From Dehalococcoidia bacterium (GTDB lineage Bacteria; Chloroflexota; Dehalococcoidia; Dehalococcoidales; W498): a stretch of 64,000 bases of DNA. Numbering within the stretch: position 1 is the first letter of the stretch; each line of letters starts with the position of its first letter. Location of the stretch: assembly GCA_011170285.1 (NCBI GenBank), contig DUEE01000002.1, positions 64,253-128,252 on the forward strand, read 5' to 3'. Shown piece after piece: positions 43,348 through 63,613 of the stretch. The translations under genes were made by a program, and so were the position numbers. The notes beneath the pieces were generated by a model. That model saw only the letters and a program-made list of their open reading frames with translations, was not told where the DNA came from and ran no database searches.

Positions 43348-44265
43348 TTAAATTTTTGGCTTTAGCGTAACCTGAATTTCCTTATCAGTCTTAACTACCT
43401 GCTCTACAGATGGCATTTCTCTCAAGATGCTAATTAAAGGAATTGATTTGTCTGCGGATACAACAATCTTGGCACCTTCCTCAACTGAGCCTCCAACTAA
43501 TACCAGGTGTAGATTTTGAACCTGACGCAAATATTCCTCCAATCTCCCCATCTGCTCATAATCTACTGGTGATGCTATCGTCATTTTCACCAATCCCTCA
43601 TAAAGTTCAGCGCTTAACTTTTCTTCGTCTTCCCTTTTTGCCGTCTCCTCGGCTTTCCTAGCTTCCTCAGCTTCCCCCTTAGCTTTCTCCTTAGCTGCCT
43701 CTTCGGCTTCCCGCTTAGCTTTCTCCTTGGCCGCCTGCTCAGCCTCTATCTTGGCTTCCTTCTCGGCTTCCTCAGCTTTCCTGGCTTCCTCATCTTCCCG
43801 CTTAGCTCTCTCCTTAGCCTCTTCGGCTTCCCGCTCAGCTCTCTCCTTGGCTGCCTGCTCAGCCTCTATCTTGGCTTCCTTCTCGGCTTCCGCAGCTTTC
43901 CTGGCTTCCTCATCTTGCCGCTTGGCTCTCTCCTTAGCCTCTTCGGCTTCCCGCTTAGCTTTCTCTCTGGCTGCTTGCTCAGCTTCCTTCTTTGCCTTCC
44001 TCTCGACTTCCTCGGCTTTCCTAGCTTCCTCAGCTGCCCGCTTGGCTCTCTCCTTAGCCTCTTCGGCTTCCCTTTTTGCCGTCTCCTCAGCCTTCCTAGC
44101 TTCCTCAGCTTCCCTCTTGGCTTCCTTCTCGGCTTGTTTATCGTATTTCATTTCTTTTGCGTCCCCCCTTACTTGCCTGCTATAATTATTTTTAGTATAA
44201 GCACAGTTAACAGCACTGTCAATAATGGTCAAGACTCGTCCCCGCTTAATGTCAGAAATTGACAT
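43348..44265 (-). CDS. Glu/Lys/Ala-rich tandem-repeat coiled-coil protein with a small C-terminal globular domain
   Basis: 305 aa. Residues ~45-215 are EAEEAKERAKR-type repeats. Residues 220-305 (LYEGLVKMTIASPVDYEQMGRLEEYL...IQVTLKPKI) are non-repetitive. The start is uncertain; M39 at 44151 lies behind AAGGGGGG. Confidence 0.6.
   Translation of the reverse strand: MSISDIKRGRVLTIIDSAVNCAYTKNNYSRQVRGDAKEMKYDKQAEKEAKREAEEARKAEETAKREAEEAKERAKRAAEEARKAEEVERKAKKEAEQAAREKAKREAEEAKERAKRQDEEARKAAEAEKEAKIEAEQAAKERAEREAEEAKERAKREDEEARKAEEAEKEAKIEAEQAAKEKAKREAEEAAKEKAKGEAEEARKAEETAKREDEEKLSAELYEGLVKMTIASPVDYEQMGRLEEYLRQVQNLHLVLVGGSVEEGAKIVVSADKSIPLISILREMPSVEQVVKTDKEIQVTLKPKI
43711..44070 (-). repeat. 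Three tandem 120-bp (40-aa) coding repeats
   Basis: The unit REAEEAKERAKR..EEARKAEE.EKEAK.EAEQAAKEKAK occurs 3 times with partial units on both sides. The antisense ORFs 43727-44185 and 43915-44262 are artefacts of the repeat. Confidence 0.85.
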
Positions 44266-44339
44266 AATTCATATTGAAGCTTATTATTGTTTACAATAAA
44301 TAAAGTGTTTAATATAAGATATTAAGGGGAAACAGTAGA

Positions 44340-45986
44340 GTGAGAGGCAGTAAAATTTTCCGTATCCTGGTATCAGGCATTATCCTTGTCCTGCTGGTGG
44401 TAGCATTCCCTGCTATTCCTATCCACGCCACGGGTGAGAATATTACTATCGACCCCGATGAGGGTGAAATCGGTGACAATATTGAGATTCTTGGCTACGA
44501 TTTCGATGCTAATTACAGGGTATATATCTACTTTTCTAGTTATAAAGCCGATGTCGGTGACAACATTGATGGGCTTGATGCCTATGAGGAGGTGGAAAGA
44601 GCCTTCACCACAGTCGATGGTACTTTTAATACTAATTTTGTCGTACCTTATACACTTACCGATGGGTATCATACAGAAGATGTGCACGGCGGCTACTATT
44701 ATGTATATATCACCTATCGCAACAGCGTCCGCATAGAAGCCACTGCCAAGTTTAGTATAATCAAAGGTGAAATTGAGCTAGACCCTGAAAAGGGTCTAGT
44801 GGGTAGTGAGGTCACGATTAGCGGTGAGGAGCTCCGCCAGGGTCAAATAATTACCATTGAATATGATTATGATGTTGTTGATATAGTTAGTGGGGATAAG
44901 GCAACCGATAGCGAAGGCAAATTCAACTGCACCATTATCGTCCCTGAGAGCATTACTGGCAACCATACTATAACCGTTACCGATGAATCTGGTAATAAGC
45001 CTGAGGCTGAGTTCATCGTGAAACCTAAAATAACTGTATCCCCAACCTCATCGTCTGGAGGAAACACGGTAGAGGTTAGCGGCGCCGGTTTTGCAAAAAA
45101 GGAATACATAACCGTTACCTTTGATGGTAACAGGGTTTCCACTAATCCCATAGCAATAAAAACTAATCATAAGGGCAGCTTCACTGGCAGCTTCCTTGTG
45201 CCTTCCAACACCACCAGCGGCATCAGTGAGGTAAGAGCCAGAGACCGTAGCGCCAATAAGGCTAATGTAGATTTGACTATTTCGGCTGGCATCAGTCTCA
45301 GTCCAACGACAAGTCAGACATTGCCTGGTTATGTCGGCATAGAGCTTACCATTTACGGCAGCGGATTCATTAACAACACCCTGGTTACCATCACCTATAG
45401 TAACAGTGAGGTCATCACTGTAGCTAAAGCACCTACTGATGTTTACGGTAATTTCTTGGCGACCTTTACTGTCCCGCCCAGCGTGGCTGGCAACCATCTT
45501 GTAACTGCCACTGATGTTACCAACACGGTAATATCAATCTTTACTATGGAAGCACAAGCACCGCCAATACCAGTGCCACGGTTACCAAAAGTTGCCGGTA
45601 TGTCAAATGCAGAAGCATATTTTGACTGGGAGGATGTTGAGGATGCCAGCGGCGTAACTTATGCTCTCCAGGTTGCCACTGATGCTGATTTTGCAATCAT
45701 AGTGCTGGAAAAGAAGGGATTAACTCACTCGGAACACACTATCGCTAAAGAGGAGAGGCTAGAACCAACCAAGAAGAAAACCCCCTACTACTGGAGGGTG
45801 AAGGCAGTAGATAGTGCCTCCAACGAGAGTGATTGGACACACCCGGTGTTATTCTATGTTGGCTCTTCTTGGACTTCAGTCTCAAGCTGGCCCATCTATA
45901 TATGGATAGGTCTTGGTGTGGTGTTACTCACTATTCTTGGCTTCTGGTTGCGAAGAAGACTCACCCAGCATCGAGATATTGGGTAA
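44340..45986 (+). CDS. Membrane-anchored surface protein with four Ig-like (IPT/TIG-type) repeats and an FN3-like domain
   Basis: 548 aa with an N-terminal signal/TM. Repeats start ITIDPDEGEIGD.., IELDPEKGLVGS.., ITVSPTSSSGGN.. and ISLSPTTSQTLPG... They are followed by YYWRVKAVDSASNESDW and a C-terminal TM plus RRRL. Confidence 0.7.
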   Translation: MRGSKIFRILVSGIILVLLVVAFPAIPIHATGENITIDPDEGEIGDNIEILGYDFDANYRVYIYFSSYKADVGDNIDGLDAYEEVERAFTTVDGTFNTNFVVPYTLTDGYHTEDVHGGYYYVYITYRNSVRIEATAKFSIIKGEIELDPEKGLVGSEVTISGEELRQGQIITIEYDYDVVDIVSGDKATDSEGKFNCTIIVPESITGNHTITVTDESGNKPEAEFIVKPKITVSPTSSSGGNTVEVSGAGFAKKEYITVTFDGNRVSTNPIAIKTNHKGSFTGSFLVPSNTTSGISEVRARDRSANKANVDLTISAGISLSPTTSQTLPGYVGIELTIYGSGFINNTLVTITYSNSEVITVAKAPTDVYGNFLATFTVPPSVAGNHLVTATDVTNTVISIFTMEAQAPPIPVPRLPKVAGMSNAEAYFDWEDVEDASGVTYALQVATDADFAIIVLEKKGLTHSEHTIAKEERLEPTKKKTPYYWRVKAVDSASNESDWTHPVLFYVGSSWTSVSSWPIYIWIGLGVVLLTILGFWLRRRLTQHRDIG

Positions 45987-46179: not shown

Positions 46180-46383
46180 ATGGCAAGTCCTAATGAGACG
46201 AACATAATGCTGACAATAAGCGACGTAGCTCGCCTTCTCAATGTGCATATTAATACAGTAAGGCGGTGGAGTAATCAGGGAATACTAAAGGCATACCGAA
46301 TCGGCTCACGAGGTGATAGAAGATTTCACCAGGAGGATATCGACAGCTTCCTTTCCCAGCAGACCGAAAATAGCCAGCAGTGA
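46180..46383 (+). CDS. Excisionase/MerR-type helix-turn-helix DNA-binding protein
   Basis: 67 aa. LTISDVARLLNVHINTVRRWSNQGILKAYRIGSRGDRRFHQEDIDSFL matches the Xis-family HTH_17 pattern. Confidence 0.75.
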   Translation: MASPNETNIMLTISDVARLLNVHINTVRRWSNQGILKAYRIGSRGDRRFHQEDIDSFLSQQTENSQQ

Positions 46384-46473: not shown

Positions 46474-47157
46474 GTGAACGGAATCACAGTAATGATAATT
46501 GATAAGCAAGCGTTTTTCCGGGCTGGTATGTGCCAGGCACTATCTCGGCAATCTGATTTCAAAATAGTAGACTGTGACCCATCTCAAGAGCCATTGGAGT
46601 TAATTGAAGCCAATTCTCCAGATGTTGTCCTGCTGGACATTGACTTTCCTGTTCTCAGCGGGCTTGAACTAGGTAGAAATATCGTACGACGCTACCCAAG
46701 TACTAAAGTGGTGCTACTAAGTTCCAACCATAATGATGACGAGCTTTTTGAAGTTATCAAAACTGGAGCAGTAGCTTACCTCAGAAAGAACACCACTGCT
46801 GAAGAGCTAGTTAGCATTATACACCGAGCTTGTAATGGTGAATACCCTATAAATAACAGCCTTATAGCTAGACCAAAGGTCGCTGAACATGTATTAAAGC
46901 AATTTCAAGAAACAGTATCAATGGGAAAAAAGATCGACAGTCTAATTGCCCACCTTACCCATAGGGAGTCGCAGATTCTAAACTACATTGCTAATGGCAA
47001 CTCAAATAAACAAATCGCCCGTATATTAGAAATCAGTGAGCAAACAATTAAGAATCATGTTAGCTCCATCCTTCGCAAGCTAAATGCTAATGATAGAGCC
47101 CATGCCGTTGCCTTAGCCATGCGCAACGGCTGGATTTCAGCGGAAGTAAAACCATAA
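46474..47157 (+). CDS. NarL/LuxR-family response regulator (REC plus HTH)
   Basis: 227 aa with receiver Asp in VVLLDIDFP, the S and K positions present, and a C-terminal LTHRESQIL..NKQIA..ISEQTIKNHVSSILRKL. No adjacent kinase. Confidence 0.88.
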   Translation: MNGITVMIIDKQAFFRAGMCQALSRQSDFKIVDCDPSQEPLELIEANSPDVVLLDIDFPVLSGLELGRNIVRRYPSTKVVLLSSNHNDDELFEVIKTGAVAYLRKNTTAEELVSIIHRACNGEYPINNSLIARPKVAEHVLKQFQETVSMGKKIDSLIAHLTHRESQILNYIANGNSNKQIARILEISEQTIKNHVSSILRKLNANDRAHAVALAMRNGWISAEVKP

Positions 47158-47346: not shown

Positions 47347-49662
47347 TTGGAAACCGATATGGAGCTAAGAGCCCAGATTAGAGAGTATCTGCAAAATCAG
47401 GGCTATGAAATAACCGAGGGGGCTAAGCTCCCCGGGAAATCAGGTGTTGAGCATATGTTTGACATACTGGCTCAAAGAGACGATGGTTTTACCAACCACA
47501 CCGTTGCCGTCTATATTGCTGCCGGGGGTGATAGGGAAATGGAGGTAGACACTATTTTCAGCTTTGCCAACAAAGCCTATGATGCTGGCATTCATGACCG
47601 AATCCTTGTTGCCACCCCTGAACTTAGTCAGGAGGCGAAACAGTTGGCTCACAAGCAGCGGATAAAGATTATGGATGGAGAACGAATAAAGTCATTATTA
47701 GATTTAGAGCCTGCGCCACCGGTTAAACCAAAGGAGCCCCTTAAGTTTGAAACAAACGAGCAATTAGTGATATCTTTAGCCAATCTGGGCTATAGAGTTG
47801 AGGAGAAAGCCAGAGTTCGAGGCCGGTCAGGAGTTGAATATACCTTTGATATATTGGCTTATATTGACATTGACCAGGTTAGTCACGGGCTAGGTATAGA
47901 TTTCCTGAACGGGGAGAAGGAAGTGAGTCTGGAGCAGATATCATTATTTGATACTAAAGCCTACGATGCCGGCATTGATGATAAAATCATTGTGGTATCA
48001 GCAGGGCTTAGCCCTGAAGCGCGGCAATTTGCCCAGCTACAGCAGATAAAAGTCCTTGAGGCAAACAAAAAAAACCCTTCTCAACCCACGGTGACTGAAG
48101 AAAAACCTGCCCCACCCAAGGAGAACCCGGCTAAGTTAGACGAGTTAGTAGCCCCAGCGGCTAAGTCTATGGTCAAATCTTTGAGGCATGCACCTCAGAC
48201 TGAAACATTGCAATTGATTCCTGAAGTGATGGCGCGAAGATATAATGCCATACCCTTGACTATATCTGATAACACATTAGAGGTGGCTATGGCAGACCCA
48301 ACCGACATCTTTGCCCTGGAGGCTTTCTCTGCCCTGAGCCAGATGATGATTAAGCCTATAGCCGCCAGTGCCAAGGCAGTCAGGGAGGCTATTGACTTTA
48401 ATTATAAAGGCTATGGCGCAATTGAACAGCAGCTTTCTCGTATCTCTACCCCCAGTGACGCAGTTGAAGACAGATTTGACATCAGGGTTGATACTGATGC
48501 CCCTCTGGCTCAGGCTCTTACCCTTATTATTGAAGAGGCAATCAAAGCCCGCTCATCTGACATTCACATTGAGCCTGAAGAGGATAGGTTGAGGATACGC
48601 TATCGTATTGATGGCACTCTTCAGGATATGATGTCTCTGCCTATGACCATACATCCGGCTCTCATTTCTCGAATCAAAATCCTGTCCGATATGAATATTG
48701 CTGACCGTCATCGTCCACAAGATGGTCAGTTTTCTACCGAGGTAAAAGGGCGACAGATAGATGTGCGAGTAGCTACTGCTCCCATTGTTAATGGTGAGAT
48801 GGCCGATTTGCGACTTCTGGACAAGTCAATGGCTACTCTAGGATTATCCGAACTTGGTATGTTACCTTATAGCCTGGAAAAGTATGAGAATGTACTCAAG
48901 ATTCCCTATGGCATGATTCTGATTAGCGGTCCTACCGGAGCCGGTAAGACCACTACCCTATATGCTTCAATCAATTCCCTTGACTGCCTGGGGAGAAACA
49001 TAATTACCATTGAAGACCCGGCAGAGTATCGGTTTAAGGATATCAATCAGATTCAGGTCAATCCTCAAGCTGGCATTACCTTCGCTACTGGCTTGAGGTC
49101 TATACTTCGTCTTGACCCCGATGTAATAATGGTCGGTGAGATACGCGATACCGAAACAGCTAACATATCGGTTCAGGCAGCCTTAACCGGGCATCTGATG
49201 TTATCCTCGGTCCATGCCAACGATGCGGCTGGTGTGCTATCCCGTCTCCTTGACCTGGACATAGAGCCTTTTCTAGTCGCGTCAGCAGTTATTGGTGTTG
49301 TCGCTCAGCGGATGGTGCGCCGCATTTGCCCTGATTGCAGCCGTCCTATAGAAGCGCCGTCAATAGAGAGGATGGCTTATGAAAGAGAAATCGGGGAGAA
49401 ACGGACTGAATTCCTGTATGGCACCGGTTGTCAGTCATGTGCTTATACCGGTTATCTGGGTCGAACGGGAATCTTTGAAATTCTAACTATGAGTGATACT
49501 ATAAGAACAATGCTTCCCAGCCAACCCAGTAGTAGCCAGATTCGTACTCAGGCACTTAAAGAAGGGATGGTAACGATTATGAACGATGGTATGCGTAAGG
49601 TAAAGGCTGATATCACTACCCCGTCTGAAGTGCTGCGTAATGCCTACTCTGGTGACTACTAA
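47347..49662 (+). CDS. pilB: Type IV pilus assembly ATPase (GspE/PilB family) with a novel duplicated N-terminal module
   Basis: 771 aa with T2SSE_N (LQLIPEVMARRYNAIPL..), Walker A GPTGAGKT, DPDVIMVGEIRD, GHLMLSSVHAN and the tetracysteine CPDC..CQSC. Residues 7-240 are two copies of an unassigned module. Confidence 0.9.
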   Translation: METDMELRAQIREYLQNQGYEITEGAKLPGKSGVEHMFDILAQRDDGFTNHTVAVYIAAGGDREMEVDTIFSFANKAYDAGIHDRILVATPELSQEAKQLAHKQRIKIMDGERIKSLLDLEPAPPVKPKEPLKFETNEQLVISLANLGYRVEEKARVRGRSGVEYTFDILAYIDIDQVSHGLGIDFLNGEKEVSLEQISLFDTKAYDAGIDDKIIVVSAGLSPEARQFAQLQQIKVLEANKKNPSQPTVTEEKPAPPKENPAKLDELVAPAAKSMVKSLRHAPQTETLQLIPEVMARRYNAIPLTISDNTLEVAMADPTDIFALEAFSALSQMMIKPIAASAKAVREAIDFNYKGYGAIEQQLSRISTPSDAVEDRFDIRVDTDAPLAQALTLIIEEAIKARSSDIHIEPEEDRLRIRYRIDGTLQDMMSLPMTIHPALISRIKILSDMNIADRHRPQDGQFSTEVKGRQIDVRVATAPIVNGEMADLRLLDKSMATLGLSELGMLPYSLEKYENVLKIPYGMILISGPTGAGKTTTLYASINSLDCLGRNIITIEDPAEYRFKDINQIQVNPQAGITFATGLRSILRLDPDVIMVGEIRDTETANISVQAALTGHLMLSSVHANDAAGVLSRLLDLDIEPFLVASAVIGVVAQRMVRRICPDCSRPIEAPSIERMAYEREIGEKRTEFLYGTGCQSCAYTGYLGRTGIFEILTMSDTIRTMLPSQPSSSQIRTQALKEGMVTIMNDGMRKVKADITTPSEVLRNAYSGDY

Positions 49663-49674: not shown

Positions 49675-50886
49675 ATGGAATTCAATTATGTAGCTTATAC
49701 TGAAGACAAAAGATTGGTCAAAGGTAAACTTTCGGCTACCAGTGAGGAAGCGGCCATCAATCTACTCAGTTATGGTGGCTATCAGGTGGTTAACCTGAAA
49801 TCGTTCACTCCCTTTTTCAATACAGAAAAGCTGGCAGCCTACTTTTCCCGGATACAGCCAAGGGAAATTATAATGTTCTCCCGTCAGTTGGCGTTACTCC
49901 TTGAAACAGGTACTGATATTGTCGCCTCTTTAGAGCTATTACAAAGCCAGGTAACCAATCGCAGCCTAAAAAAGGTAATTGGCGAGGTTGCCTCTGACAT
50001 TCGCGGTGGCAGTTCGTTATCAGCCGCTCTAAGTAAACACCCTCGGGCTTTCCCTGAAATCTACCATCGGACAATAGCTGCTGGTGAGCAGGGCGGCAAT
50101 CTAGACATAGTGCTAAGACAAATGGCTGATCATTTTGAGAGGGGAGTTACCACGGAAAAGAAGATTAAGAATGCCCTGACCTATCCCTTTATTGTTGCCT
50201 TTGTAGCCGTTATAGTGATAGGTATATTGGTTACCTTTGTTTTGCCCACCTTTACTAGCTTATACACTGCATTTGGGTCTGACTTACCCCCGGCAACGCA
50301 GATACTTATTAGTGTGTCTGATTGGTTTAGCCATTACGGGCTTTATATGCTGCTAGCACTACTGGCGGTTGCTGTCTTAGGCTTTGCCTACATCAAAACC
50401 CCAGCCGGTAAATATCAGTGGGACAGTATAATGCTCAGACTACCCGTATTGGGGCGCATTAACCTCCTTGGCGAGCTTTCCCGCTGTTGCCGAATCATAT
50501 CTCTACTATTCAGGGTTGGCTTGCCCTTACCTGAAATCATGACTATGTCTATTCAAGGCAGCAATAATAAGGTTGTGGCTGAGGCTCTAACTGGAATTCA
50601 GCAGGAGTTAGTGAGGGGCGAAGGCTTATCCAAACCTATGGCAAGGAGTAAGCTCTTCCTCCCCTTAATGGTGCAGATGACTGGAGTCGGTGAGGAAACC
50701 GGTAACCTTGACAACACACTAGCCACTGTAGCTGATAGCTATGAGATGGAGGCTGATGATAGGACTAGCTCGGCGGTGGCACTTATTCAACCAGCTATGA
50801 TTTTAATTATCGCCTTGGTAGTTGGTTTTATTGCTGTGTCTATGGTTTCAGCTATGTATTCCATCTATGGGCAGATGGGTGTCTAG
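49675..50886 (+). CDS. pilC: Type IV pilus platform protein (GspF/PilC family)
   Basis: 403 aa with two T2SSF repeats and 3 TM segments. Confidence 0.9.
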   Translation: MEFNYVAYTEDKRLVKGKLSATSEEAAINLLSYGGYQVVNLKSFTPFFNTEKLAAYFSRIQPREIIMFSRQLALLLETGTDIVASLELLQSQVTNRSLKKVIGEVASDIRGGSSLSAALSKHPRAFPEIYHRTIAAGEQGGNLDIVLRQMADHFERGVTTEKKIKNALTYPFIVAFVAVIVIGILVTFVLPTFTSLYTAFGSDLPPATQILISVSDWFSHYGLYMLLALLAVAVLGFAYIKTPAGKYQWDSIMLRLPVLGRINLLGELSRCCRIISLLFRVGLPLPEIMTMSIQGSNNKVVAEALTGIQQELVRGEGLSKPMARSKLFLPLMVQMTGVGEETGNLDNTLATVADSYEMEADDRTSSAVALIQPAMILIIALVVGFIAVSMVSAMYSIYGQMGV

Positions 50887-55736: not shown

Positions 55737-55778
55737 GAATAAAGTTTAAGTTGGGAGCAAGCCCGATTAGTTCTTTGT

Positions 55779-55941
55779 GTAATTGCGAAGCACTAACCCT
55801 CTCGTCATTGCGAGGAGTTCTTCCCAGAAGGACGACGAGGCAATCTCGGAGGGGAGGAAACGGAGTGAGATTACAATGAGATTGCTTCGTCCTTTATCCT
55901 TCACCAAAGGGTGAAGGATGAACCGAAGGACTTGCAATGAC
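55779..55941. repeat. MITE/REP-like nested palindrome, family 'A' subfamily 1 (second copy)
   Basis: Near-identical blocks to 42830-43017 (CTCGTCATTGCGAGGAGTTCTTCCCAGAAGGACGACGAGGCAATCTC ... GAGATTGCTTCGTCCTTTATCCTTCACCAAAGGGTGAAGGATGAACCGAAGGACTTGCAATGAC). Confidence 0.75.
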
Positions 55942-55994
55942 ATTCCTTCTATTGAGAAGGAGCTTTGGAAAACCTTTATGGATGGAGTTAAATA

Positions 55995-56582: not shown

Positions 56583-56584
56583 CT

Positions 56585-58045
56585 ATGGCAAAGACAGTTA
56601 CTACACTATTTATTAGAGATGATATCATTAACCTGCTGGTAGTTGAGGGCAAGCAGATAAAGCAGTGGGCTAGACTACCACTGGAGCCGGGTCTGGTTAG
56701 GCAAGGGCTTGTTCTTGATGAAGAACAGGTAGCAGATAAGCTCAAAGAGCTATTCAAGCTGGAGAAGGTAAGCACTGATAAGGTCATCGTTGGTTTGAGC
56801 GGGCACAATTCCCTGTATCGCTTGCTAACTCTGCCTGACTTGCCTGAGGCAGTAGTCGCCGAGGCAGTAAGGCATGAAGCCAGAAGAGTGATTCCAGTGC
56901 CTATGGACGAGGTTTACCTTTCATACCAGCTTGTTCCTGCCCCCGAGAAGGAAAGACATGTTTTCCTGGCTGCTTTCCCCCGCAATTTGGTTGATGCCTT
57001 AATCAGGACGCTAAAGCAGGCAGGCATTGAGCCCTATATTATGGACTTGTCCCCGCTAGCCCTGTGCCGAACCCTGTTTGAGCCCAGAGGTATCATTGTC
57101 AATGCCAAGTTAGACCATCTTAACATTATGGTTATGGAAGATAGGCTGCCCGAAGTAATCCGCAGGCTCACCCTACCCGGCGAGGCTAAATCCTTATCGG
57201 AAAAACTGCCCACTATTATTGAAGAGCTTAATAGAACTGTTGCCTTCTATAATTCTAGCCATCAGGATAAGCCTATAGATTCAACCATGCCTGTATTTGT
57301 CTGCGGTGACTTAGCCGAGACACCGGAGAGCTGGCAACCACTGGTTAGTCAGTTGAGCTATTCATTCTCAGCATTACCATCGCCTCTGGAATCCCCTGAA
57401 GGCTTCAATGCCAACGAGTTTATGGTCAATATCGGACTGGCTCTGAAGGAGCTATCACCTGAGAAGTGGGGGATAAACCTCTCATTGGTCAATTTTAATA
57501 CCTTACCTGATGTTTACCTGTCCAAGCCCCTGCGTGTGTCACAAATCCTTATCCCGGCTGGTATCACCGTCGGCATAGGCTTAGTTATCTTTTTGGCATT
57601 TTTTACTTGGAACGGTATGGCTCATAATAAGGTATTGCGCTCCCAACTGGCACCTATTGAGAGCCAAATTAGCCTTGAGCGCGCAGAAATAGCGACCTTG
57701 CAGGAGCAGATAGGACTGATACAAGCCCAGATTGAGCCAGTAGAAACCACCTACAGTATTCTTAATACTACACTTACCTATCTGGGAGAAAGTCGTGAAG
57801 TTGTTGATGGAGATTTAAGTGAGATTGACCGCTTAAAGCCAACCACAGTAGACTTTACTGAGGTTAATCATACCGGTGATACGGTAACTGTCAGTGGCGT
57901 AGCGCCCGATGAGAAAAAGATTTTTAAATATGCTGCGGATTTAAGAAGCTGTGATAGAAACTTTACAGTTATTATATCATCTATTACTGCGATGAGTGAC
58001 GATGAAGGGTTTTATTTCGATTTTCTCCTGAAACACGACGGGTAG
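56585..58045 (+). CDS. pilM: PilM-PilN fusion protein
   Basis: 486 aa. Residues 1-~300 are an actin-like PilM. A TM helix follows (ILIPAGITVGIGLVIFLAFFTW), then a coiled coil and a PilN-like C-terminal domain. Confidence 0.78.
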   Translation: MAKTVTTLFIRDDIINLLVVEGKQIKQWARLPLEPGLVRQGLVLDEEQVADKLKELFKLEKVSTDKVIVGLSGHNSLYRLLTLPDLPEAVVAEAVRHEARRVIPVPMDEVYLSYQLVPAPEKERHVFLAAFPRNLVDALIRTLKQAGIEPYIMDLSPLALCRTLFEPRGIIVNAKLDHLNIMVMEDRLPEVIRRLTLPGEAKSLSEKLPTIIEELNRTVAFYNSSHQDKPIDSTMPVFVCGDLAETPESWQPLVSQLSYSFSALPSPLESPEGFNANEFMVNIGLALKELSPEKWGINLSLVNFNTLPDVYLSKPLRVSQILIPAGITVGIGLVIFLAFFTWNGMAHNKVLRSQLAPIESQISLERAEIATLQEQIGLIQAQIEPVETTYSILNTTLTYLGESREVVDGDLSEIDRLKPTTVDFTEVNHTGDTVTVSGVAPDEKKIFKYAADLRSCDRNFTVIISSITAMSDDEGFYFDFLLKHDG

Positions 58046-58056
58046 GAGGTTAAGAT

Positions 58057-59127
58057 ATGGATATTTTTTCATTGTTTAATTTAGCCAAATCCCAGGGCGC
58101 TTCTGATTTGCATATGGTTGTCTCCAGTCCGCCGCTACTGCGTATTAATGGCTTTCTACGGGTAGTGGATGGTGTGATGCCGCTAACCGCTGATGACATA
58201 AACCAGGCTTTTCTCCAGATAACCACCCCCGAGGAAAGGGAGGAATTCCAGCAGCATCTGGAGCTTGATTTCGGCTATAGCCTGCCTGAAGTTGGTCACC
58301 TCCGCTGTAACGCTGCCCAACAGCGTGGAGCTATCAGCCTGGCGGTGCGTCTGTTGCCGGCCAAAATACCCACCATAGATGAGCTGGAGTTACCCCAGTT
58401 ATGTAAGGAGTTTGCCTTAAAGCAGCGAGGACTGGCAATAGTTACCGGACCTACTGGCAGTGGTAAAAGCACTACCCTGGCAGCTATGGTAAACCACTTA
58501 AATATGAATGAGAGCCGCCATATAGTTACTATTGAGGATCCTATTGAATATGTCCACCCCACTATTAAATGTGCTGTAACCCAGCGCCAGTTAGGCTCTG
58601 ATACTCTATCTTTTGCCACCGCCCTGAGACATGTCTTAAGGCAGGACCCTGATGTCATTCTGGTGGGTGAGATGAGGGATTTAGATACTGCGGCGGCGGT
58701 GCTTACCATAGCTGAGACCGGGCACTTGATACTATCCACTGGTCATGCCCCCAGCGCGGCTCAATCAATGGAGAGAATAATAGATTTATTTCCACCCCAT
58801 GAGCGCCATCTAGCCCAGACACGGCTAGCTTCTTTACTTATTGGTGTGCTATGTCAGACGCTTGTTCCCCGAGTTGACGGCTCGGGGAGGATAGCTGCCG
58901 TTGAGGTTATGATAGCTAATCCAGCGGTGAAGAACCTCATCCGTGAGGGTAAAATCTACCAGTTACCTAATGTAATTCGCACTCATCGGGATATAGGCAT
59001 GATTTCACTAGACGAAGCCCTGGTTGACCTCTATCTTAAGCGGATAATCAATGGCGAAATCCTGCTTGCCTTCTGCAATGACCGCCAAGAGGTAGAAAAG
59101 CTTATCGGCAAGGTAGTGGTGGTGTAA
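58057..59127 (+). CDS. pilT: Type IV pilus retraction ATPase PilT
   Basis: 356 aa with GASDLHM, Walker A GPTGSGKST, DPDVILVGEMRD and GHLILSTGHA. Confidence 0.92.
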   Translation: MDIFSLFNLAKSQGASDLHMVVSSPPLLRINGFLRVVDGVMPLTADDINQAFLQITTPEEREEFQQHLELDFGYSLPEVGHLRCNAAQQRGAISLAVRLLPAKIPTIDELELPQLCKEFALKQRGLAIVTGPTGSGKSTTLAAMVNHLNMNESRHIVTIEDPIEYVHPTIKCAVTQRQLGSDTLSFATALRHVLRQDPDVILVGEMRDLDTAAAVLTIAETGHLILSTGHAPSAAQSMERIIDLFPPHERHLAQTRLASLLIGVLCQTLVPRVDGSGRIAAVEVMIANPAVKNLIREGKIYQLPNVIRTHRDIGMISLDEALVDLYLKRIINGEILLAFCNDRQEVEKLIGKVVVV

Positions 59128-59190
59128 GCTATCAGCTAATGGCTATTAGCTATCTGCTGACTGATGACTGCCGACTGCTAAAAGCTAATA
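59128..59190 (+). repeat. Heptanucleotide tract T1 (9 x GCTNNNN/GNNGACT)
   Basis: gctatca gctaatg gctatta gctatct gctgact gatgact gccgact gctaaaa gctaata. Begins at the nucleotide after the pilT stop. Confidence 0.85.
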
Positions 59191-59365
59191 TTCAGCGAAG
59201 GGGAAGGGTCTCTGAGATTCTTCGTCCTTCTACCGAAGGACTCAGAATGACAAAAACGGGCGGCACCCACCCTCTCGTCATTGCGAGCGAAGCGAAGCAA
59301 TCTCAATTAAAAAGGAAACCCTGAGATTGCCACGTCCTTCTAACGAAGGACTCGCAATGACATTC
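59166..59365 (+). repeat. Direct repeat, left copy (200 bp; contains a family 'A' subfamily 2 nested palindrome)
   Basis: About 95% identical to 60494-720 apart from a ~27-nt indel. Includes GTCATTGCGAG...GCAATCTC-N18-GAGATTGC...CTCGCAATGAC. ORF 59139-59324 is only its translation. Confidence 0.85.
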
Positions 59366-59374
59366 CGGTGAACG

Positions 59375-59486
59375 CTGACTGTTGATAGCTGACCGCTGAC
59401 TATTGACTAATGACTAATCACTATTGACTAATGACTATTGATTGCTGAAAGCTATTAGCTATAAGCTATTTGCTGGCTGCTTAGAT
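59375..59486 (+). repeat. Heptanucleotide tract T2 (16 degenerate units, consensus NTGACTA)
   Basis: ctgactg ttgatag ctgaccg ctgacta ttgacta atgacta atcacta ttgacta atgacta ttgattg ctgaaag ctattag ctataag ctatttg ctggctg cttagat. Confidence 0.85.
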
Positions 59487-59579
59487 ATAGCAAAGCCCAG
59501 TGGCGAGGTAGAAGTAAAACCAACTCCCTTATACTCTCCTTTACAATTTAATCACTCCCAGATATACTACCAGTGGAAA

Positions 59580-59807
59580 ATGGGAAGGAAACTTAGAGGC
59601 ATAAGTGGGCAAGAAGCTATCGAAGCTTTTAAGAAATTTGGCTATAGCCAGAGGAAGGGTAAAGGAAGCCATGTAAATCTGGTTAAGCCTGGAAGCAATA
59701 GGCTGACTATACCGCTCCATACTGAATTAAGCGTGGGGTTATTAGCCAATGAAATAAAAAAGGCTGGTTTAACCGTGGAAGAATTTCAAGAGCTTCTAGG
59801 GAGGTGA
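59580..59807 (+). CDS. hicA: HicA-family toxin (pair 3)
   Basis: From M47 of the track ORF: MGRKLRGISGQEAIEAFKKFGYSQRKGKGSHVNLVKPG... The upstream part of the track ORF is a translated heptamer tract. Confidence 0.85.
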   Translation: MGRKLRGISGQEAIEAFKKFGYSQRKGKGSHVNLVKPGSNRLTIPLHTELSVGLLANEIKKAGLTVEEFQELLGR

Positions 59808-59810
59808 CAA

Positions 59811-60035
59811 ATGGAGGCTATGGAATATACAGTGATTTTGCACTGGGATGAAGAATATAACGGTTACTGGATAGAAGTACCGGCATTACCTGGCTGTGTC
59901 TCCCAGGGTAAAAGCAAAGAGGAGGCGTTAGCTAATATCAAAGAAGCTATTGAACTACACCTTGAGTGTTTGGAAGAAGACGGCGAGGTCATACCCAAGG
60001 AAGAATCTTACCGAATAGCTGTAGCTGCCAAATAA
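59811..60035 (+). CDS. hicB: HicB-family antitoxin (pair 3)
   Basis: 74 aa with YTVILHWDEEYNGYWIEVPALPGCVSQGKSKEEALANIKEAIELHLE. Confidence 0.88.
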   Translation: MEAMEYTVILHWDEEYNGYWIEVPALPGCVSQGKSKEEALANIKEAIELHLECLEEDGEVIPKEESYRIAVAAK

Positions 60036-60049
60036 GCTCTCGGCAATTG

Positions 60050-60120
60050 GCTATCAGCTTTAAGCTTTAATGCTTTCAGCATTTAGCAGTCGGCAGTCAG
60101 CAGTCGGCAGTTAGCTCCAA
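60050..60120 (+). repeat. Heptanucleotide tract T3 (10 units; its GCAGTCG part is the reverse complement of the T4/T5 units)
   Basis: gctatca gctttaa gctttaa (t) gctttca gcattta gcagtcg gcagtca gcagtcg gcagtta gctccaa. Ends 1 nt before the four-helix-bundle GTG start. Confidence 0.85.
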
Positions 60121-60121
60121 A

Positions 60122-60481
60122 GTGAAAGATTTCAAAGAACTGGAAGTATGGGTTAAGGCTCATCAGTTGACTCTGGCGGTCTATGAGGCTACCCAGACGT
60201 TCCCCCGTTATGAATTTTATGGACTGACAAGTCAAATCAGGCGTTCATGTGCTTCCATACCAGCCAATATTGCGGAAGGTTGCGGCCGAAGTGGAGATGC
60301 CGAGCTGGCTCGCTTCCTCCAGATTGCGATGGGTTCGGCAAGCGAGCTTGAATATCACATTCTGCTGGCTCGTGACCTCAGCTTACTCAACAGCCTAGCC
60401 TATGACCACCTGGCTAGTGATGTGACCGTGGTAAAACGCATGCTGGCGTCATTTATCAAGAAGCTGAAAGCTGACTACTGA
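60122..60481 (+). CDS. Four-helix-bundle protein (23S rRNA IVS protein / Avd-like family)
   Basis: 119 aa. FKELEVWVKAHQLTLAVYEATQTFPRYEFYGLTSQIRRSCASIPANIAEGCGR matches the family pattern (TIGR02436-like). GTG start. Confidence 0.85.
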   Translation: MKDFKELEVWVKAHQLTLAVYEATQTFPRYEFYGLTSQIRRSCASIPANIAEGCGRSGDAELARFLQIAMGSASELEYHILLARDLSLLNSLAYDHLASDVTVVKRMLASFIKKLKADY

Positions 60482-60518
60482 CTGCCGACTGCCGACTGCC
60501 GACTGCTAAAAGCTATTA
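60463..60518 (+). repeat. Heptanucleotide tract T4 (8 units), overlapping the last codons of the four-helix-bundle ORF
   Basis: gctgaaa gctgact actgact gccgact gccgact gccgact gctaaaa gctatta. The stop TGA (60479-81) lies inside the tract. Confidence 0.85.
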
Positions 60519-60720
60519 TTCAGCGAAGGGGAAGCGTCTCTGAGATTCTTCGTCCTTCTACCGAAGGACTCAGAATGACAAAAATGGGCGGCACTCACCC
60601 TCTCGTCATTGCGATGAGCCGAAGCCCTGAGCGTAGCGAAGGGAAAGCGAAGCAATCTCAATTAAAAAGGAAACCATGAGATTGCCACGTCCTTCTAACG
60701 AAGGACTCGCAATGACATTC
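60494..60720 (+). repeat. Direct repeat, right copy (227 bp)
   Basis: Collinear with 59166-59365 and carries an extra GAGCCGAAGCCCTGAGCGTAGCGAAGGGAA-like insert. Confidence 0.85.
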
Positions 60721-60721
60721 G

Positions 60722-60819
60722 GCTGACTACTGACTCCCGACTGTTGACTGTTTACCGCTGACTGCCGACTGCCGACTGCTGACTGCCGACTGCCGACTGC
60801 CGACTGCTAAAAGCTAATA
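60722..60819 (+). repeat. Heptanucleotide tract T5 (14 units, mostly GCCGACT/GCTGACT)
   Basis: gctgact actgact cccgact gttgact gtttacc gctgact gccgact gccgact gctgact gccgact gccgact gccgact gctaaaa gctaata. Confidence 0.88.
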
Positions 60820-60823
60820 CATA

Positions 60824-60866
60824 GAAAAGCTCATCGGTAAATCGCTGCTAAACATTACCGATGAGC
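60824..60866 (-). terminator. Rho-independent terminator of pilA
   Basis: A 12-bp perfect stem GCTCATCGGTAA/TTACCGATGAGC with a 14-nt loop, followed on the minus strand by UUUUC. Lies 85 nt past the pilA stop. Confidence 0.6.
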
Positions 60867-60951
60867 CTTATCTAACCGATTCTTACTCCTGGCTACGCCT
60901 GCTTATTCCGGCACAACTCACTATAGCTGTAATCCAACTATTTTAAAGCTA

Positions 60952-61332
60952 TTAGGCTTTGGCGCCTTGAGTTGTCACGCCATCAATCAAAATAGTATAT
61001 GTGTATTCAGTCGGGTTTAGTAGGTACTTTTGCGGGTCATTAACAGCAGTAACACCAGTAGGGTCTAGCTGCGCGGCGGTATAAGTCACTATAACCGGAC
61101 TCATACCGGCAGCTGTCCCCTCAACCATTGCCGCCGTTACTGCTACCAGCACATTAGCCAGTTCCGTCTCAGCCGCCTCTGATTCACCACTGCCAATAAA
61201 CCGGGCGACGGCAGGGATGGCTACTGCTGCCAGGACACCCAGAATAGCTACTACCACCAGCAGCTCAATCAGTGTGAAACCCTTCTCACCATAACGAAAC
61301 GATTTCTTGAACTTACTTATAAACCTCCTCAT
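60952..61332 (-). CDS. pilA: Major type IV pilin candidate (prepilin-type N-terminal domain)
   Basis: 126 aa with leader ...RYGEKG/FTLIELLVVVAILGVLAAVAIP. Strong SD (AAGGAAGGAGG). Small size and a dedicated terminator suggest the major subunit. Confidence 0.82.
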   Translation of the reverse strand: MRRFISKFKKSFRYGEKGFTLIELLVVVAILGVLAAVAIPAVARFIGSGESEAAETELANVLVAVTAAMVEGTAAGMSPVIVTYTAAQLDPTGVTAVNDPQKYLLNPTEYTYTILIDGVTTQGAKA

Positions 61333-61542
61333 TTTTTTCGCCTCCTTCCTTCGTTATTTAAAAGTATTTCCAGTAACTTATTGTATTGTATAGCTCACTT
61401 TCTCTATATTATATTTCCCCCTTTCCTTGTTATTTTAATTTACTTTAGGCAAAGTATAGTTAGTTAAGTTTATGATATAACCTATACCTATTCTAAGTCA
61501 ATAGTCCATTAGTAATAGGTATATTGGTGCCAAACGTCCACA

Positions 61543-61612
61543 GGAAAGATTAAAAGTTAAAGACCAAGAACAAAAATAAAGGATTAAAAACTAAAAATAA
61601 AAATGTAAAATC
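61543..61612 (+). repeat. AT-rich repeat copy 4
   Basis: GGAAAGATTAAAAGTTAAAGACC...CTAAAAATAAAAATGTAAAATC. It has the same (+) polarity as copies 1-3, although the adjacent hicAB pair is on the minus strand. Confidence 0.6.
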
Positions 61613-61684
61613 TGAAGTAAATTTTAACATTTAGCTTTTGATATTTAATTTACCAAGCGGTTGGCTCCAGCATAATAAACCATC

Positions 61685-61909
61685 TTACCCTTTCACCAAC
61701 TGAATAAATTCATCAATACTTATATCAGCGGTGCGAAGTATGGCTCGCATAGTGCCCCTATCTAGCTTATTATGTTTGGGAACGGTGACTGGCCTCCTCC
61801 CGGGACATCTCATCCTGACATGACTTCCCCTGGTTCGAGCTACCCTGTAGCCAATTCGCTCAAGGGCTGAGATGCATTGGTCGCCCGAAACAATCGGTAG
61901 CTCTGGCAT
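61685..61909 (-). CDS. hicA: HicA-family toxin (pair 4)
   Basis: 74 aa with VSGDQCISALERIGYRVARTRGSHVRM. TGATG overlap with hicB. Confidence 0.85.
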   Translation of the reverse strand: MPELPIVSGDQCISALERIGYRVARTRGSHVRMRCPGRRPVTVPKHNKLDRGTMRAILRTADISIDEFIQLVKG

Positions 61910-62139
61910 CAGGTGCCAATCTCAACCTGATCAAGAACATATTCCATGGGTAGAGTCCAGCCTTCCTCTTCCATACTTTCCAGGCAGAGCTCAGCAGCTT
62001 CTTTAATGTTGACTAGAGCCTCCTCTTTAGTCCTCCCCTGTGAAATGCAGCCGGGGACTACTGGTATCTCGGCTACAAAATAACCATCTTCCCCCACTGT
62101 GATAACAACAGGCAGCTTCATTTCTCTTACCTCCCCCAT
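61909..62139 (-). CDS. hicB: HicB-family antitoxin (pair 4)
   Basis: 76 aa with VVITVGEDGYFVAEIPVVPGCISQGRTKEEALVNIKEAAELCLE. Confidence 0.85.
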   Translation of the reverse strand: MGEVREMKLPVVITVGEDGYFVAEIPVVPGCISQGRTKEEALVNIKEAAELCLESMEEEGWTLPMEYVLDQVEIGT

Positions 62140-62245
62140 ATAAATATTAATAATTAAAGACTAAAAACCAGAAACTTAAATTGTTTTAAACATTTGAGTT
62201 TTGAATTTGTTTAGAGTTTAGAAATTAGGATCTAGAATTTATGTC

Positions 62246-63613
62246 TTAGCTAGATGGCTCCAGATCGTTAACCTCAAAGACCTTGATTTTCTGCCTCTGG
62301 GCAAACTGGCGGGCTTCCTGGGTAAGCCCGGGAACGGCAATAAAGACCTTAGCTAGAATACCTATATCATAAGCCTTATCATCAAAATCAAATACCTTCT
62401 CTAATCCCACCGCCTCCTCAGCTAGCTCAATGCCGACAACAACACGATGAGTAATGATGGCGTCATCCCTGGTAGCCAGTATGTCTATACTGTGTTCTGC
62501 CCCTGACCTGCCTGTAACCTCAGTATTTTCCTCTATTTCGTAGTCTTGCTGCTTTAAGTATTCTATAAACTGTGACTTGGAGTTAAATTCAAAGGGCTCT
62601 CTTTTTACCCCCTCGCTGGGCTTGGGGACACCGCCAGCCAGCACCGTCTCCAAATCCTTAACTCCAAGTACATTTATTCTCTGCAGACTGGCATATTTCT
62701 CCGCCTCTTTGCCTAAAGCGGGGGCAACAACCAGAATTTTATCGTGAATACCTATATCATAGGCTATATCATCAAAGTTAAATATCTCTCCCAGCCCTAT
62801 CTCATCTCCAGCCACCTTAATCCCAATAGCGATATTACAAGTAATAACACCATCATCCCTGGTAGCCAGTATATCTATACTGTGTTTTGCCCCTGACCTG
62901 CCTTTAACCTCTGCATTTTCCTTTACTTCATAGCCGCGCTTTTTCAAAAATTCTATGAGTTGTGATTTGGGCTTAAGTTCAAATTCCAGCCAGCCTCTCT
63001 TTGCCTCATTGAAACGATAAGAATAGACATTTACCTCACTAACACCATCCTCAGCGGTAAGCGACGAGCATTTCAGGCAGCGCCATTTTATTATGGGTAT
63101 GTTGAATACCTCATCGCAATCGCGGCACTTGCGCAGCATCCCCAGGCTACGGTAGTCACTGCCAATAGTCCGTAGCTCCTGCCCACACTTGGGGCATATA
63201 TACCTACCTTTGTGGATAAACTCGGCTTCAAGCCCAACATATTTACAGACAAAGTGCTCAAATACCCTGCCCCGGGGAATATTCCCTGAGCCACACTTAG
63301 GACAACGGGTAGAGGGTCTCAAAACTACCGACAGACACTGGGGACAGTGAATGAACTTATCAAAGAACTCCCTTTTCACTATACCCTTATCAGCCAGTAA
63401 TTCTAAAGTTGATACCACTTCCCCTCCCTTAACGGCTAATACTTGCTCAACTGCTGGATAGATGAAGCCCAGTTCACTGGTGAAATCAAGCTCCGGTCTA
63501 ATATCAACAATCCTCCCCGCTAGCATTTCTGCCCCCAGTCTCATTGCCTTTTCATTCTGCTCAATTTGTGTGGCTGGGGTAGTATTATTTACAGGCTCAT
63601 TTACTTCAGCCAA
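62246..63613 (-). CDS. Multi-zinc-ribbon protein with two C-terminal copies of the PilB N-terminal module
   Basis: 455 aa. Residues ~30-85 are a possible winged-helix region. Residues 90-182 carry five CxxC pairs (C90/93, C104/107, C140/143, C163/166, C179/182). Residues 216-322 and 346-452 are the module GY/DYE[VI].EN.EV.GRSGA.HSIDILATRDD...AYDIGI..K[IV]...P.L..EA..[YF]A..Q.I.V. Confidence 0.7.
   Translation of the reverse strand: MAEVNEPVNNTTPATQIEQNEKAMRLGAEMLAGRIVDIRPELDFTSELGFIYPAVEQVLAVKGGEVVSTLELLADKGIVKREFFDKFIHCPQCLSVVLRPSTRCPKCGSGNIPRGRVFEHFVCKYVGLEAEFIHKGRYICPKCGQELRTIGSDYRSLGMLRKCRDCDEVFNIPIIKWRCLKCSSLTAEDGVSEVNVYSYRFNEAKRGWLEFELKPKSQLIEFLKKRGYEVKENAEVKGRSGAKHSIDILATRDDGVITCNIAIGIKVAGDEIGLGEIFNFDDIAYDIGIHDKILVVAPALGKEAEKYASLQRINVLGVKDLETVLAGGVPKPSEGVKREPFEFNSKSQFIEYLKQQDYEIEENTEVTGRSGAEHSIDILATRDDAIITHRVVVGIELAEEAVGLEKVFDFDDKAYDIGILAKVFIAVPGLTQEARQFAQRQKIKVFEVNDLEPSS

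Follow-up and report, generated by a model that had tools for sequence, protein, structure and literature searches.

The type IVa pilus (T4aP) systems closest to the locus described here are those of monoderm (single-membrane) Firmicutes such as Streptococcus sanguinis, Clostridium difficile and Clostridium perfringens, in which one clustered locus encodes pilins with class III signal peptides together with PilB, PilC, PilM, PilN, PilO, PilT and PilD, without a secretin or PilP (PMC6916266). The extension ATPase of our locus is further comparable to PilF of Thermus thermophilus and MshE of Vibrio, in which an N-terminal extension carries the regulatory input. In addition, one neighboring gene product shares the TackOD1 domain (arCOG06883) with thaumarchaeal proteins; excerpts of two published accounts note this domain in thaumarchaeal type IV pilus loci and give it no known function (PMC5847659, PMC4858521).

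Here, we analyzed a stretch of 64,000 nt (hereafter, the window) from a Dehalococcoidia bacterium of the Chloroflexota (assembly GCA_011170285.1, contig DUEE01000002.1, positions 64,253-128,252 of the forward strand). Coordinates are window positions, and genes were called from a listing of open reading frames (ORFs) and from profile searches (Pfam, NCBIfam). The window was compared with 49 related loci (labeled L and a number) that were retrieved by scanning genome and metagenome collections for the fused pilus protein PilM-PilN (PilMN), and onto which all window genes were mapped. Our analysis points with considerable confidence to a complete chromosomal T4aP cluster of a single-membrane Dehalococcoidia bacterium that was later interrupted and is probably functional. 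Its sole departure from the described systems is probably a tandem nuclease-fold module shared by PilB and a TackOD1 protein, and we found no description of such a pilus-regulatory module.

Gene content and class of the filament

A co-directional block of plus-strand genes spans 46.2-59.1 kb, and pilA converges on this block from the minus strand. An earlier note, made from the sequence alone, had named pilB, pilC, two minor pilins, a pilO-like gene, a pilM-pilN fusion, pilT and pilA, and the ORFs and domain profiles confirmed their positions. The locus comprises the following features (arrows mark the predicted cleavage sites):

44340-45986, plus strand: Ig-repeat surface protein of 548 amino acids (aa) with a C-terminal membrane anchor (weak Ig-domain Pfam matches)
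46180-46383, plus strand: HTH_17/MerR-like (excisionase/BldC-type) DNA-binding protein, 67 aa (HTH_17, 55 bits; TIGR01764, 41.7 versus a cut-off of 28.8)
46474-47157, plus strand: LuxR/GerE-type response regulator, REC and HTH domains (Response_reg, 75 bits; GerE, 77 bits)
47347-49662, plus strand: PilB extension ATPase, 771 aa (T2SSE, 413 bits; MshEN, 54 bits)
49675-50886, plus strand: PilC platform protein (T2SSF, 195 bits in two stretches; GspF/PilC NCBIfam models match its full length)
50899-51321, plus strand: minor pilin 1, MKNEKG↓FSLIE (N_methyl, 39 bits; motif)
51318-51881, plus strand: minor pilin 2, NQRG↓FTLIE (N_methyl, 38.5 bits; motif)
51838-54312, plus strand: large modular pseudopilin, 824 aa, or 801 aa from the start at 51907 (homologues, AF2, Foldseek)
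55995-56582, plus strand: PilO-like protein (position and size)
56585-58045, plus strand: PilM-PilN fusion (PilM_2, 60.8 bits versus a cut-off of 27)
58057-59127, plus strand: PilT retraction ATPase (TIGR01420, 409 bits versus a cut-off of 319)
about 60826-60870, minus strand: intrinsic terminator of pilA (12-bp GC-containing stem and UUUUC in the computed fold)
60952-61332, minus strand: major pilin PilA, 126 aa, with an 18-residue leader followed by G↓FTLIE (N_methyl, 36.9 bits; TIGR02532, 35 versus 16.3)
62246-63613, minus strand: TackOD1 protein with two nuclease-fold domains, 455 aa (TackOD1, 136 bits; Mrr_cat, 54 bits in two stretches)

The terminator that the earlier note had assigned to pilA was recovered as a hairpin, GCTCATCGGTAA...TTACCGATGAGC, followed by TTTTC. 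The same note had overlooked the gene at 62246-63613, the presence of its nuclease-fold module in PilB and the conserved HTH_17 and LuxR-type regulators upstream. In at least 10 loci the HTH_17 protein is kept upstream of the response regulator and PilB, a conserved position that makes it a candidate regulator, and the response regulator itself is 74-76% identical and syntenic across the compact loci described below. The Ig-repeat protein retains its place upstream of the HTH_17-LuxR-PilB genes in L004, L024, L026, L027, L029, L042 and L046, and marks the conserved upstream edge of the locus.

This gene set matches the monoderm T4aP hallmark set reviewed by Pelicic (PMC6916266). Three pilins in the window and one beyond it carry class III signal peptides (G↓FSLIE, G↓FTLIE, G↓FTLIE and G↓FTLIE), with N_methyl scores of 34-39 bits against a cut-off of 21.2. 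The solved structures nearest to the PilB core are Geobacter PilB (5tsg, E 1e-117) and Myxococcus PilB, with E-values of 1e-114 to 1e-117. The earlier note's description of a monoderm-style locus lacking a secretin held up, as neither a secretin nor PilP was found among the scanned window ORFs, the genes called on the extension contig or the syntenic relatives. The fused PilM-PilN is shared with C. difficile (PMC6916266) and the long leader of the major pilin with the Firmicutes systems, and, as with PilB/PilC of S. sanguinis, the large modular pilin is a candidate adhesin. The locus differs from the Firmicutes systems in its Chloroflexota host, in the two nuclease-fold domains that replace the c-di-GMP-binding (cyclic di-GMP-binding) MshEN helices of PilB, in a large pseudopilin that lacks Glu5 and carries reelin/CBM-like jelly rolls, in the four HicAB cassettes that interrupt it and in the placement of pilA and pilD on a separate convergent/divergent arm.

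The earlier note had also allowed for a competence (Com-type) pseudopilus that serves DNA uptake rather than a retractile T4aP. The pilins are indeed short, the organism is monoderm, T4aP can themselves import DNA, as in Thermus (PMC6325625), and the ComGA and ComGB models gave partial matches of 255 and 140 bits. Both scores, however, fall short of the respective cut-offs of 300 and 240 bits, while PilT exceeds its curated cut-off and, together with PilM and the PilN/PilO-like genes, is T4aP-defining and foreign to Com operons (PMC6916266). Neither ComEA nor ComEC is encoded within the 73.6 kb examined. We thus rejected the Com-type pseudopilus as very improbable and regard the filament as a T4aP.

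The prepilin peptidase lies beyond the window edge

The earlier note had remarked on the lack of a prepilin peptidase, and our search for A24 peptidase motifs was indeed empty in all six frames of the window, also with a relaxed motif. As the note had proposed, we extended the sequence past 64 kb. A look-up placed the last complete window gene on two metagenome contigs, one of which (L001) is 100% identical to window positions 52246-64000 over 11,755 bp and runs 9.6 kb further. This continuation encodes, in order, a copy of a composite repeat, a second pilin (pilA2), pilD, an inverted copy of the repeat, and HTH_45, GH3 and GGDEF-HD genes. At the window edge and beyond it lie:

63955-64000, continuing to window-equivalent 64056, plus strand: 33-codon hydrophobic ORF (translated from L001)
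window-equivalent 64574-64945, minus strand: pilA2, second pilin, 59% identical to PilA
window-equivalent 65184-66032, plus strand: pilD (A24_N_bact, 103 bits; Peptidase_A24, 43.8 bits; GWGDVK motif)

PilD, which was detected by Pfam and not by NCBIfam, is absent from the window because the window edge falls about 1.2 kb before it. With PilD and a second pilin located 0.6-2.0 kb beyond position 64000 on an identical contig, the missing peptidase finds no support as a biological feature of the locus; its apparent loss is a window-edge effect, and its absence from the window is uninformative on the organism. The note's gene start at 63955, left there without a function, does exist, yet it opens only the 33-codon ORF and not pilD. 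This ORF has a good Shine-Dalgarno sequence and would encode a single hydrophobic helix (MLESLMTTNVLLALIAAINIAMWLTFWRLLSKR), either as a small membrane protein or as a chance ORF.

Assembly sub-complex and large pseudopilin

The PilO-like protein consists of an N-terminal transmembrane segment, a coiled coil and an alpha/beta C-terminus. It gave no Pfam match at E-values up to 10, and a 19-sequence profile aligned collinearly, with a non-significant E-value of 0.58, to Myxococcus xanthus PilO (3jc8_O). In the PilM-PilN fusion, the PilM part is followed by a hydrophobic segment (ILIPAGITVGIGLVIFLAFFTW) and then by a weak, sub-cut-off PilN match (E 0.0078). The position and size of the PilO-like and PilN parts fit a PilM-PilN-PilO sub-complex, in which only PilM passes its cut-off.

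The likely start of the large pseudopilin at 51907 gives an N-terminus, ETGQVMIMVL, that retains the Gly and lacks Glu5. We found 261 homologues; source names are given for a few of them, all Chloroflexota, and one homologue is named 'PilX N-terminal domain-containing'. No Pfam domain covers the body of the protein or of its homologues, PilX_N reaches only E 0.99 in a Pfam search up to E 10, and NCBIfam returned no match for the protein. An AlphaFold2 (AF2) model built with 45 homologues (mean predicted local distance difference test [pLDDT] score of 84) displays a 72-residue N-terminal helix followed by beta-sandwich/jelly-roll domains, for which Foldseek retrieved reelin repeats, CBM4 modules and the Bacteroides surface glycan-binding protein SGBP-B. 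The C-terminal part varies among relatives, and the L012 version is 403 aa long. We infer that the protein would be a GspK/PilX-type tip pseudopilin with lectin-like modules, i.e. a modular pilin adhesin.

A nuclease-fold module shared by PilB and a TackOD1 protein

PilB owes its length of 771 aa to two Mrr_cat-like domains that precede the ATPase. These two domains have a restriction-endonuclease fold and occupy aa 1-240; a linker connects them to a truncated MshEN/GSPII domain (282-353), and T2SSE (383-764) follows. The N-terminus matched Mrr_cat (41.5 bits) and NA-iREase1 (27.3 bits) in Pfam, and its AF2 model (pLDDT 83.4) shows two alpha/beta domains for which Foldseek retrieved AF1548 (5.6e-6), the nuclease domain of Can2, NucS/EndoMS and MspJI. 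In a 24-sequence alignment of the module, only Asp39, Asp46, Asp79 and Asp168 are invariant, and no conserved catalytic D...(D/E)xK was found; the strand expected to carry (D/E)xK reads VAVYIAAG / GIDFLNG. Since this element is not conserved, both domains are probably catalytically dead.

The ATPase core is homologous to those of PilF and MshE (6f8l and 5oiu, E 1e-96 to 1e-106). Compared with these proteins, the window PilB retains a single MshEN domain reduced to its C-terminal half, consistent with a Pfam match limited to aa 282-353, and its extension is instead a tandem module of PD-(D/E)xK fold. Even a relaxed search found neither of the two 24-residue c-di-GMP motifs, RLGxx(L/V)(L/V)xxG(L/I)(L/V)xxxxLxxxLxxQ, in the window PilB or the PilB of L007. 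The PilB of a distant relative, L045, has both motifs and no module. Throughout the clade, PilB carries the module as a fusion. A literature search on a restriction-endonuclease-like N-terminal domain of PilB returned nothing relevant.

The same module recurs in the TackOD1 protein. Its TackOD1 domain (PF18551), which is Cys-rich and of the multi-zinc-ribbon type, scores 136.4 bits against a cut-off of 32, and its five CXXC motifs and one HXXC motif (CPQC, CPKC, HFVC, CPKC, CRDC and CLKC) fit the description given in the excerpt of PMC5847659. Its two C-terminal nuclease-fold domains share 41% identity with PilB aa 1-243 (E 7e-58). The gene lies directly upstream of pilA in the window and in L003, L033, L052, L057 and L058, and in L007 and L008 its position is directly upstream of pilB, whose product there has 513 aa and no module. 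Taken together, the stand-alone gene is found beside pilA or pilB in eight of nine contexts, the ninth (L056) reaching the contig edge. Such a distribution is a fusion/fission (Rosetta-stone) pattern.

Word-indexed searches reached close relatives only (44 matches for the nuclease-fold module and 31 for TackOD1), and an exhaustive profile search was needed to reveal forms in which a REC domain precedes TackOD1. With the module profile, 982 representative proteins were retrieved, 235 of them at E 1e-10 or better, and one cluster has a member named as a Dehalococcoidia bacterium. We tested nine long proteins with a C-terminal module: eight are response regulators of the REC-TackOD1-nuclease-fold type, and in the remaining one CARDB takes the place of REC; another tested protein, the tenth, has an N-terminal module and is a PilB-type ATPase. 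TackOD1 proteins that carry the JGI name 'general secretion pathway protein E' were considered as TackOD1-PilB fusions and rejected, as their sequences stop after the second nuclease-fold domain. Separately, in L059 (9001-11253) and L060 (2299-4590), regulators composed of REC, TackOD1 and two nuclease-fold domains are encoded in a conserved operon with a GAF histidine kinase, an OmpR-type regulator, a GT2 processive glycosyltransferase, and a UDP-glucose dehydrogenase and/or sugar epimerase, which suggests that the module also serves exopolysaccharide control.

In common with the thaumarchaeal proteins, the window protein has the same Pfam domain, a link to a type IV filament locus and relatives of the REC-TackOD1 form, as far as the excerpted accounts describe them (PMC5847659, PMC4858521). 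It differs in being bacterial, in lying beside a bacterial T4aP rather than an archaeal filament and in its fusion to two probably inactive nuclease-fold domains, which are also present on PilB; the excerpts of the two accounts mention neither such a C-terminal module nor a link to PilB (PMC5847659, PMC4858521). As a tentative proposal, the nuclease-fold pair might be a protein-protein or ligand module that links TackOD1 signaling proteins to envelope machines and replaces the c-di-GMP input of PilB. We put this no higher because its support consists of architecture and neighborhood. In the same speculative vein, the tandem module may act as a docking/regulatory module for Chloroflexota envelope machines, with homotypic contacts switching pilus extension and, possibly, exopolysaccharide synthesis.

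Conversely, the module might have no part in pilus control, a DNA-binding or defence-type domain having come to PilB by chance and the TackOD1 gene being a mobile passenger. This explanation, which we find doubtful to a similar degree, draws on the PD-(D/E)xK fold itself, on the absence of the TackOD1 gene from about a dozen compact loci and the variability of the interval in which it lies, and on the REC-TackOD1 relatives in non-pilus operons. It has to contend with the lack of a conserved ExK catalytic motif, with the clade-wide fusion to PilB, with the stand-alone gene standing beside pilA or pilB in lineages down to 34% PilMN identity, and with the independent tie of TackOD1 to type IV pilus loci in Thaumarchaea reported in the excerpt of PMC5847659.

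Insertions and comparison with related loci

The earlier note had described three breaks in the operon caused by toxin-antitoxin (TA) modules and repeat DNA, and all three are real. The first (54313-55994) contains HicB1/A1, HicB2/A2, A-rich 22-mers and hairpins resembling repetitive extragenic palindromes (REP-like); the second (59128-60951) contains HicA3/B3 and a gene for a 23S rRNA-intervening-sequence protein (23S_rRNA_IVP) between two direct repeats of about 250-280 bp; and the third (61333-62245) contains HicB4-HicA4. Their components are:

54521-54974, plus strand: HicB1-HicA1, inserted (HicA_toxin, 68.8 bits; HicB_lk_antitox, 26.9 bits)
55164-55663, plus strand: HicB2-HicA2, inserted (HicA_toxin, 59.8 bits; HicB_lk, 26.3 bits; 38% identical to pair 1)
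55664-55994, plus strand: decayed cassette remnant and REP-like palindromes directly upstream of pilO (-70 kcal/mol, z = -5.05; homologous to the L012 junction)
59154-59401, plus strand: composite repeat R1, with CTGACTG/CCGACTG heptamers and REP-like hairpins (direct repeat of 60482-60763; fold z = -4.8)
59442-60035, plus strand: HicA3-HicB3, inserted (HicA_toxin, 42.6 bits; HicB_lk, 51.7 bits)
60122-60481, plus strand: 23S rRNA-intervening-sequence (four-helix-bundle) protein gene (23S_rRNA_IVP, 123.8 bits; inverted repeats I1-I10)
60482-60763, plus strand: composite repeat R2, direct copy of R1 (repeat searches)
61685-62139, minus strand: HicB4-HicA4, inserted between the TackOD1 gene and pilA (HicA, 58.3 bits; HicB_lk, 38.5 bits)

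HicA exceeds the cut-off of 27 bits in all four pairs (42.6-68.8 bits), as do HicB3 and HicB4, with HicB1 and HicB2 falling slightly short (26.9 and 26.3 versus 27); HicA3 probably starts at an internal Met near 59577. As in HicAB type II TA modules, each HicA is paired with a HicB-like antitoxin and the two genes are adjacent or overlap by 4 nt. Unlike the typical arrangement, four dissimilar pairs are crowded into one pilus locus, three in the order B-A and one in the order A-B. The pairs are mutually only 29-54% identical, and they were therefore acquired separately; a local duplication as their common origin was rejected on the same figure.

The nearest genome records are Dehalococcoidia metagenome-assembled genomes. 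About a dozen long loci (55-58% PilMN identity) share a compact order, namely the Ig-repeat protein, HTH_17, the LuxR-type response regulator, PilB, PilC, minor pilins 1 and 2, the large pseudopilin, PilO, PilMN and PilT, followed by the pilA/PilD arm with one to three pilA genes (minus), PilD (plus), HTH_45, GH3 and GGDEF. The Hic, 23S_rRNA_IVP and TackOD1 genes are absent from these loci, and the gap between the divergent pilA and pilD is 177-215 nt in 11 related loci. From the stop of the large pseudopilin gene to the start of pilO, the distance is at most 72 nt, and usually 1-15 nt, in 25 of the 27 measurable loci; it grows to 252 nt in L038 and 583 nt in L012, and reaches 1682 nt in the window. 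No Hic match was found at this junction in the 25 relatives. The window locus is thus more fragmented than its relatives, as the earlier note had held.

The synteny comparison that the note had suggested showed that the insertions differ between lineages. Upstream of pilO, L012 (76% PilMN identity) carries REP-like DNA and the remnant of a truncated hicB; in addition, a retropepsin-like gene and a HicBA pair separate pilC from minor pilin 1 there (986-1969). In L052, a HicB-like gene follows pilT, and only the TackOD1 gene, without HicB4-HicA4, lies between pilA and pilD. In L031, an insert of 8.3 kb separates pilT from pilA (about 10991-19398), and on the short contig L041 (6-1347) PilMN is cut off at residue 292, with Hic genes following. 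Toward its 3' end, the first insert of the window can be aligned with the junction of L012; the alignment takes in the decayed end of hicB and the ribosome-binding region of pilO, and the interruption is therefore older than the split of the two lineages. The note had asked whether relatives share the interruptions as a conserved arrangement: one site, between the large pseudopilin gene and pilO, is indeed common to the window and L012, yet 25 of the 27 loci are compact there. The fragmentation is real, secondary, lineage-variable, long tolerated and partly ancient. As a side observation, a 21-kb locus in L004 (JAUVYB010000006.1), titled 'Deltaproteobacteria bacterium', is syntenic gene for gene with the Dehalococcoidia-type loci and has no secretin, and the taxonomic label of that bin is probably wrong.

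Transcription and functionality of the interrupted locus

All window pil genes are full-length, relatives align to them end to end and the cassettes within the plus-strand block are co-oriented with the pil genes; the pilus machine is therefore, judging from the sequence, most likely still functional. Expression would probably run as read-through or as two to three sub-operons. A consensus scan for promoters and terminators was uninformative, with 54 promoter-like matches against 32 expected and 13 terminator-like matches against 15 expected; it missed the pilA terminator because of its long loop.

A decaying locus, in which the insertions have cut pilO-pilMN-pilT and pilD off from pilBC and pilus production has ceased, appears improbable to us. 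It would account for the 1.7 kb of foreign sequence, containing strong hairpins, that separates the large pseudopilin gene from pilO, for the decayed hicB remnant and for the broken PilMN of L041. It is at odds with the intact pil ORFs, with the shared orientation of cassettes and pil genes, and with the state of L012, where pilO and pilMN are complete ORFs and the pilT frame stays open as far as the contig reaches. In that relative, the pilO upstream junction and ribosome-binding region are kept, which argues for long-term retention under selection.

Several points nevertheless weigh against a functional, regulated T4aP as we read it. PilB remains under the NCBIfam PilB equivalog cut-off (488 versus 676 bits), and PilO and PilN were assigned from their position and from weak matches (E 0.58 and 0.0078, respectively). 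Very stable REP-like hairpins lie between hicA2 and pilO (z -5.05) and after pilT (z -4.8), in fold regions that lack canonical U-tracts, and these could cause transcripts to end or be processed there. For TackOD1, a regulatory role is one that we infer from the fusion/fission pattern and gene neighborhood, and two REC-TackOD1-nuclease-fold relatives adjoin a glycosyltransferase operon and not pili. As the source is a metagenome assembly, further pil loci or a secretin may also be encoded elsewhere in the genome.

Repeat families and neighboring genes

The repeat families occur 14, 17 and 5 times against shuffled expectations of 0.2, 0.2 and 0, an excess of one to two orders of magnitude, and have no Rfam match at gathering thresholds, where only tRNAs and an L10 leader were found. 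REP-like palindromic units (GTCATTGCGA...GCAATCTC / GAGATT...AATGAC; 14 core matches versus 0.2 expected) are intergenic across the window (15656-15777, 42830-43017, 55779-55941, 59215-59361 and 60545-60716) and recur in L001 (7250-7513 and 9117-9377); the family is a genome-wide element rather than one specific to the pil locus. One copy is also found after pilT in L052.

Heptamer arrays of CTGACTG/CCGACTG in both orientations (59135-59180, 59374-59480, 60072-60116, 60456-60514 and 60730-60816) form the ends of the composite repeat of about 250 bp and bracket the 23S_rRNA_IVP gene, which is flanked by inverted arrays. Four copies of the composite repeat lie within 59-66.4 kb, the last two being inverted around pilA2-pilD beyond the window, and this arrangement may mark a small mobile or recombinogenic unit. 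An A-rich 22-mer (GTAAAAGTTAAAAATAAAAATG; 5 versus 0 expected) occurs around the Hic cassettes (54344-54504, 55026-55144, 55669-55740 and 61538-61610). In three places it is followed by a related stretch that would encode M-x-K-x-KDLT(V/I)DEL, whose ATG and open frame are kept in two copies only (54383 and 55700); the element may be a cassette leader or remnant. A HicB-like sequence was also detected by tblastn with HicB3/HicB4 near the tRNA cluster (about 31793-32100), and TA modules are therefore not limited to the pil locus in this genome.

At the left end of the studied interval, a 305-aa protein (43348-44265, minus strand) has a KEAEEA-rich coiled coil in its middle 200 residues and a C-terminal globular domain of about 90 aa. 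Its coding region consists of 120-nt tandem repeats (families D1/D2), it has no Pfam match, and it is not kept beside pil genes, the sole match being a weak homologue elsewhere in L009. The remaining window is housekeeping in content (ATP synthase, PPDK, DnaG, RpoD, UvrA, tRNAs and the L10 leader).

Proposed mechanism and implications

In the proposed mechanism, PilA, PilA2 and both minor pilins would be processed by PilD at their G↓F(T/S)LIE leaders. PilA would be polymerized by PilB and PilC, with PilM-N and the PilO-like protein holding these two in place. Priming and capping of the fiber would fall to both minor pilins together with the 800-aa pseudopilin (helix plus jelly rolls), the latter at the tip and probably acting as a glycan-binding adhesin; PilT would retract the fiber, and a secretin would not be needed in a single-membrane envelope. 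The PilB of this lineage would have swapped its c-di-GMP-binding MshEN helices for two dead nuclease-fold domains, through which the stand-alone TackOD1 protein, encoded upstream of pilA, would act on it. At its intergenic junctions, an ancestral compact layout would later have taken up four HicAB cassettes unrelated to one another, the 23S_rRNA_IVP gene and REP-like/heptamer repeats.

The pilus locus itself is ordinary; with it, the monoderm T4aP set gains an example from the Dehalococcoidia. Pilus operons of this kind repeatedly take up TA cassettes and REP-like DNA at the same junctions without loss of pil genes, and they are a natural test of how far a multi-gene machine operon tolerates interruption. 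The fusion/fission pattern offers a testable hypothesis both for TackOD1 and for the control of a pilus motor that lacks c-di-GMP motifs. If true, it would give a first mechanistic role to TackOD1, so far an orphan 'output domain' of thaumarchaeal pilus loci.

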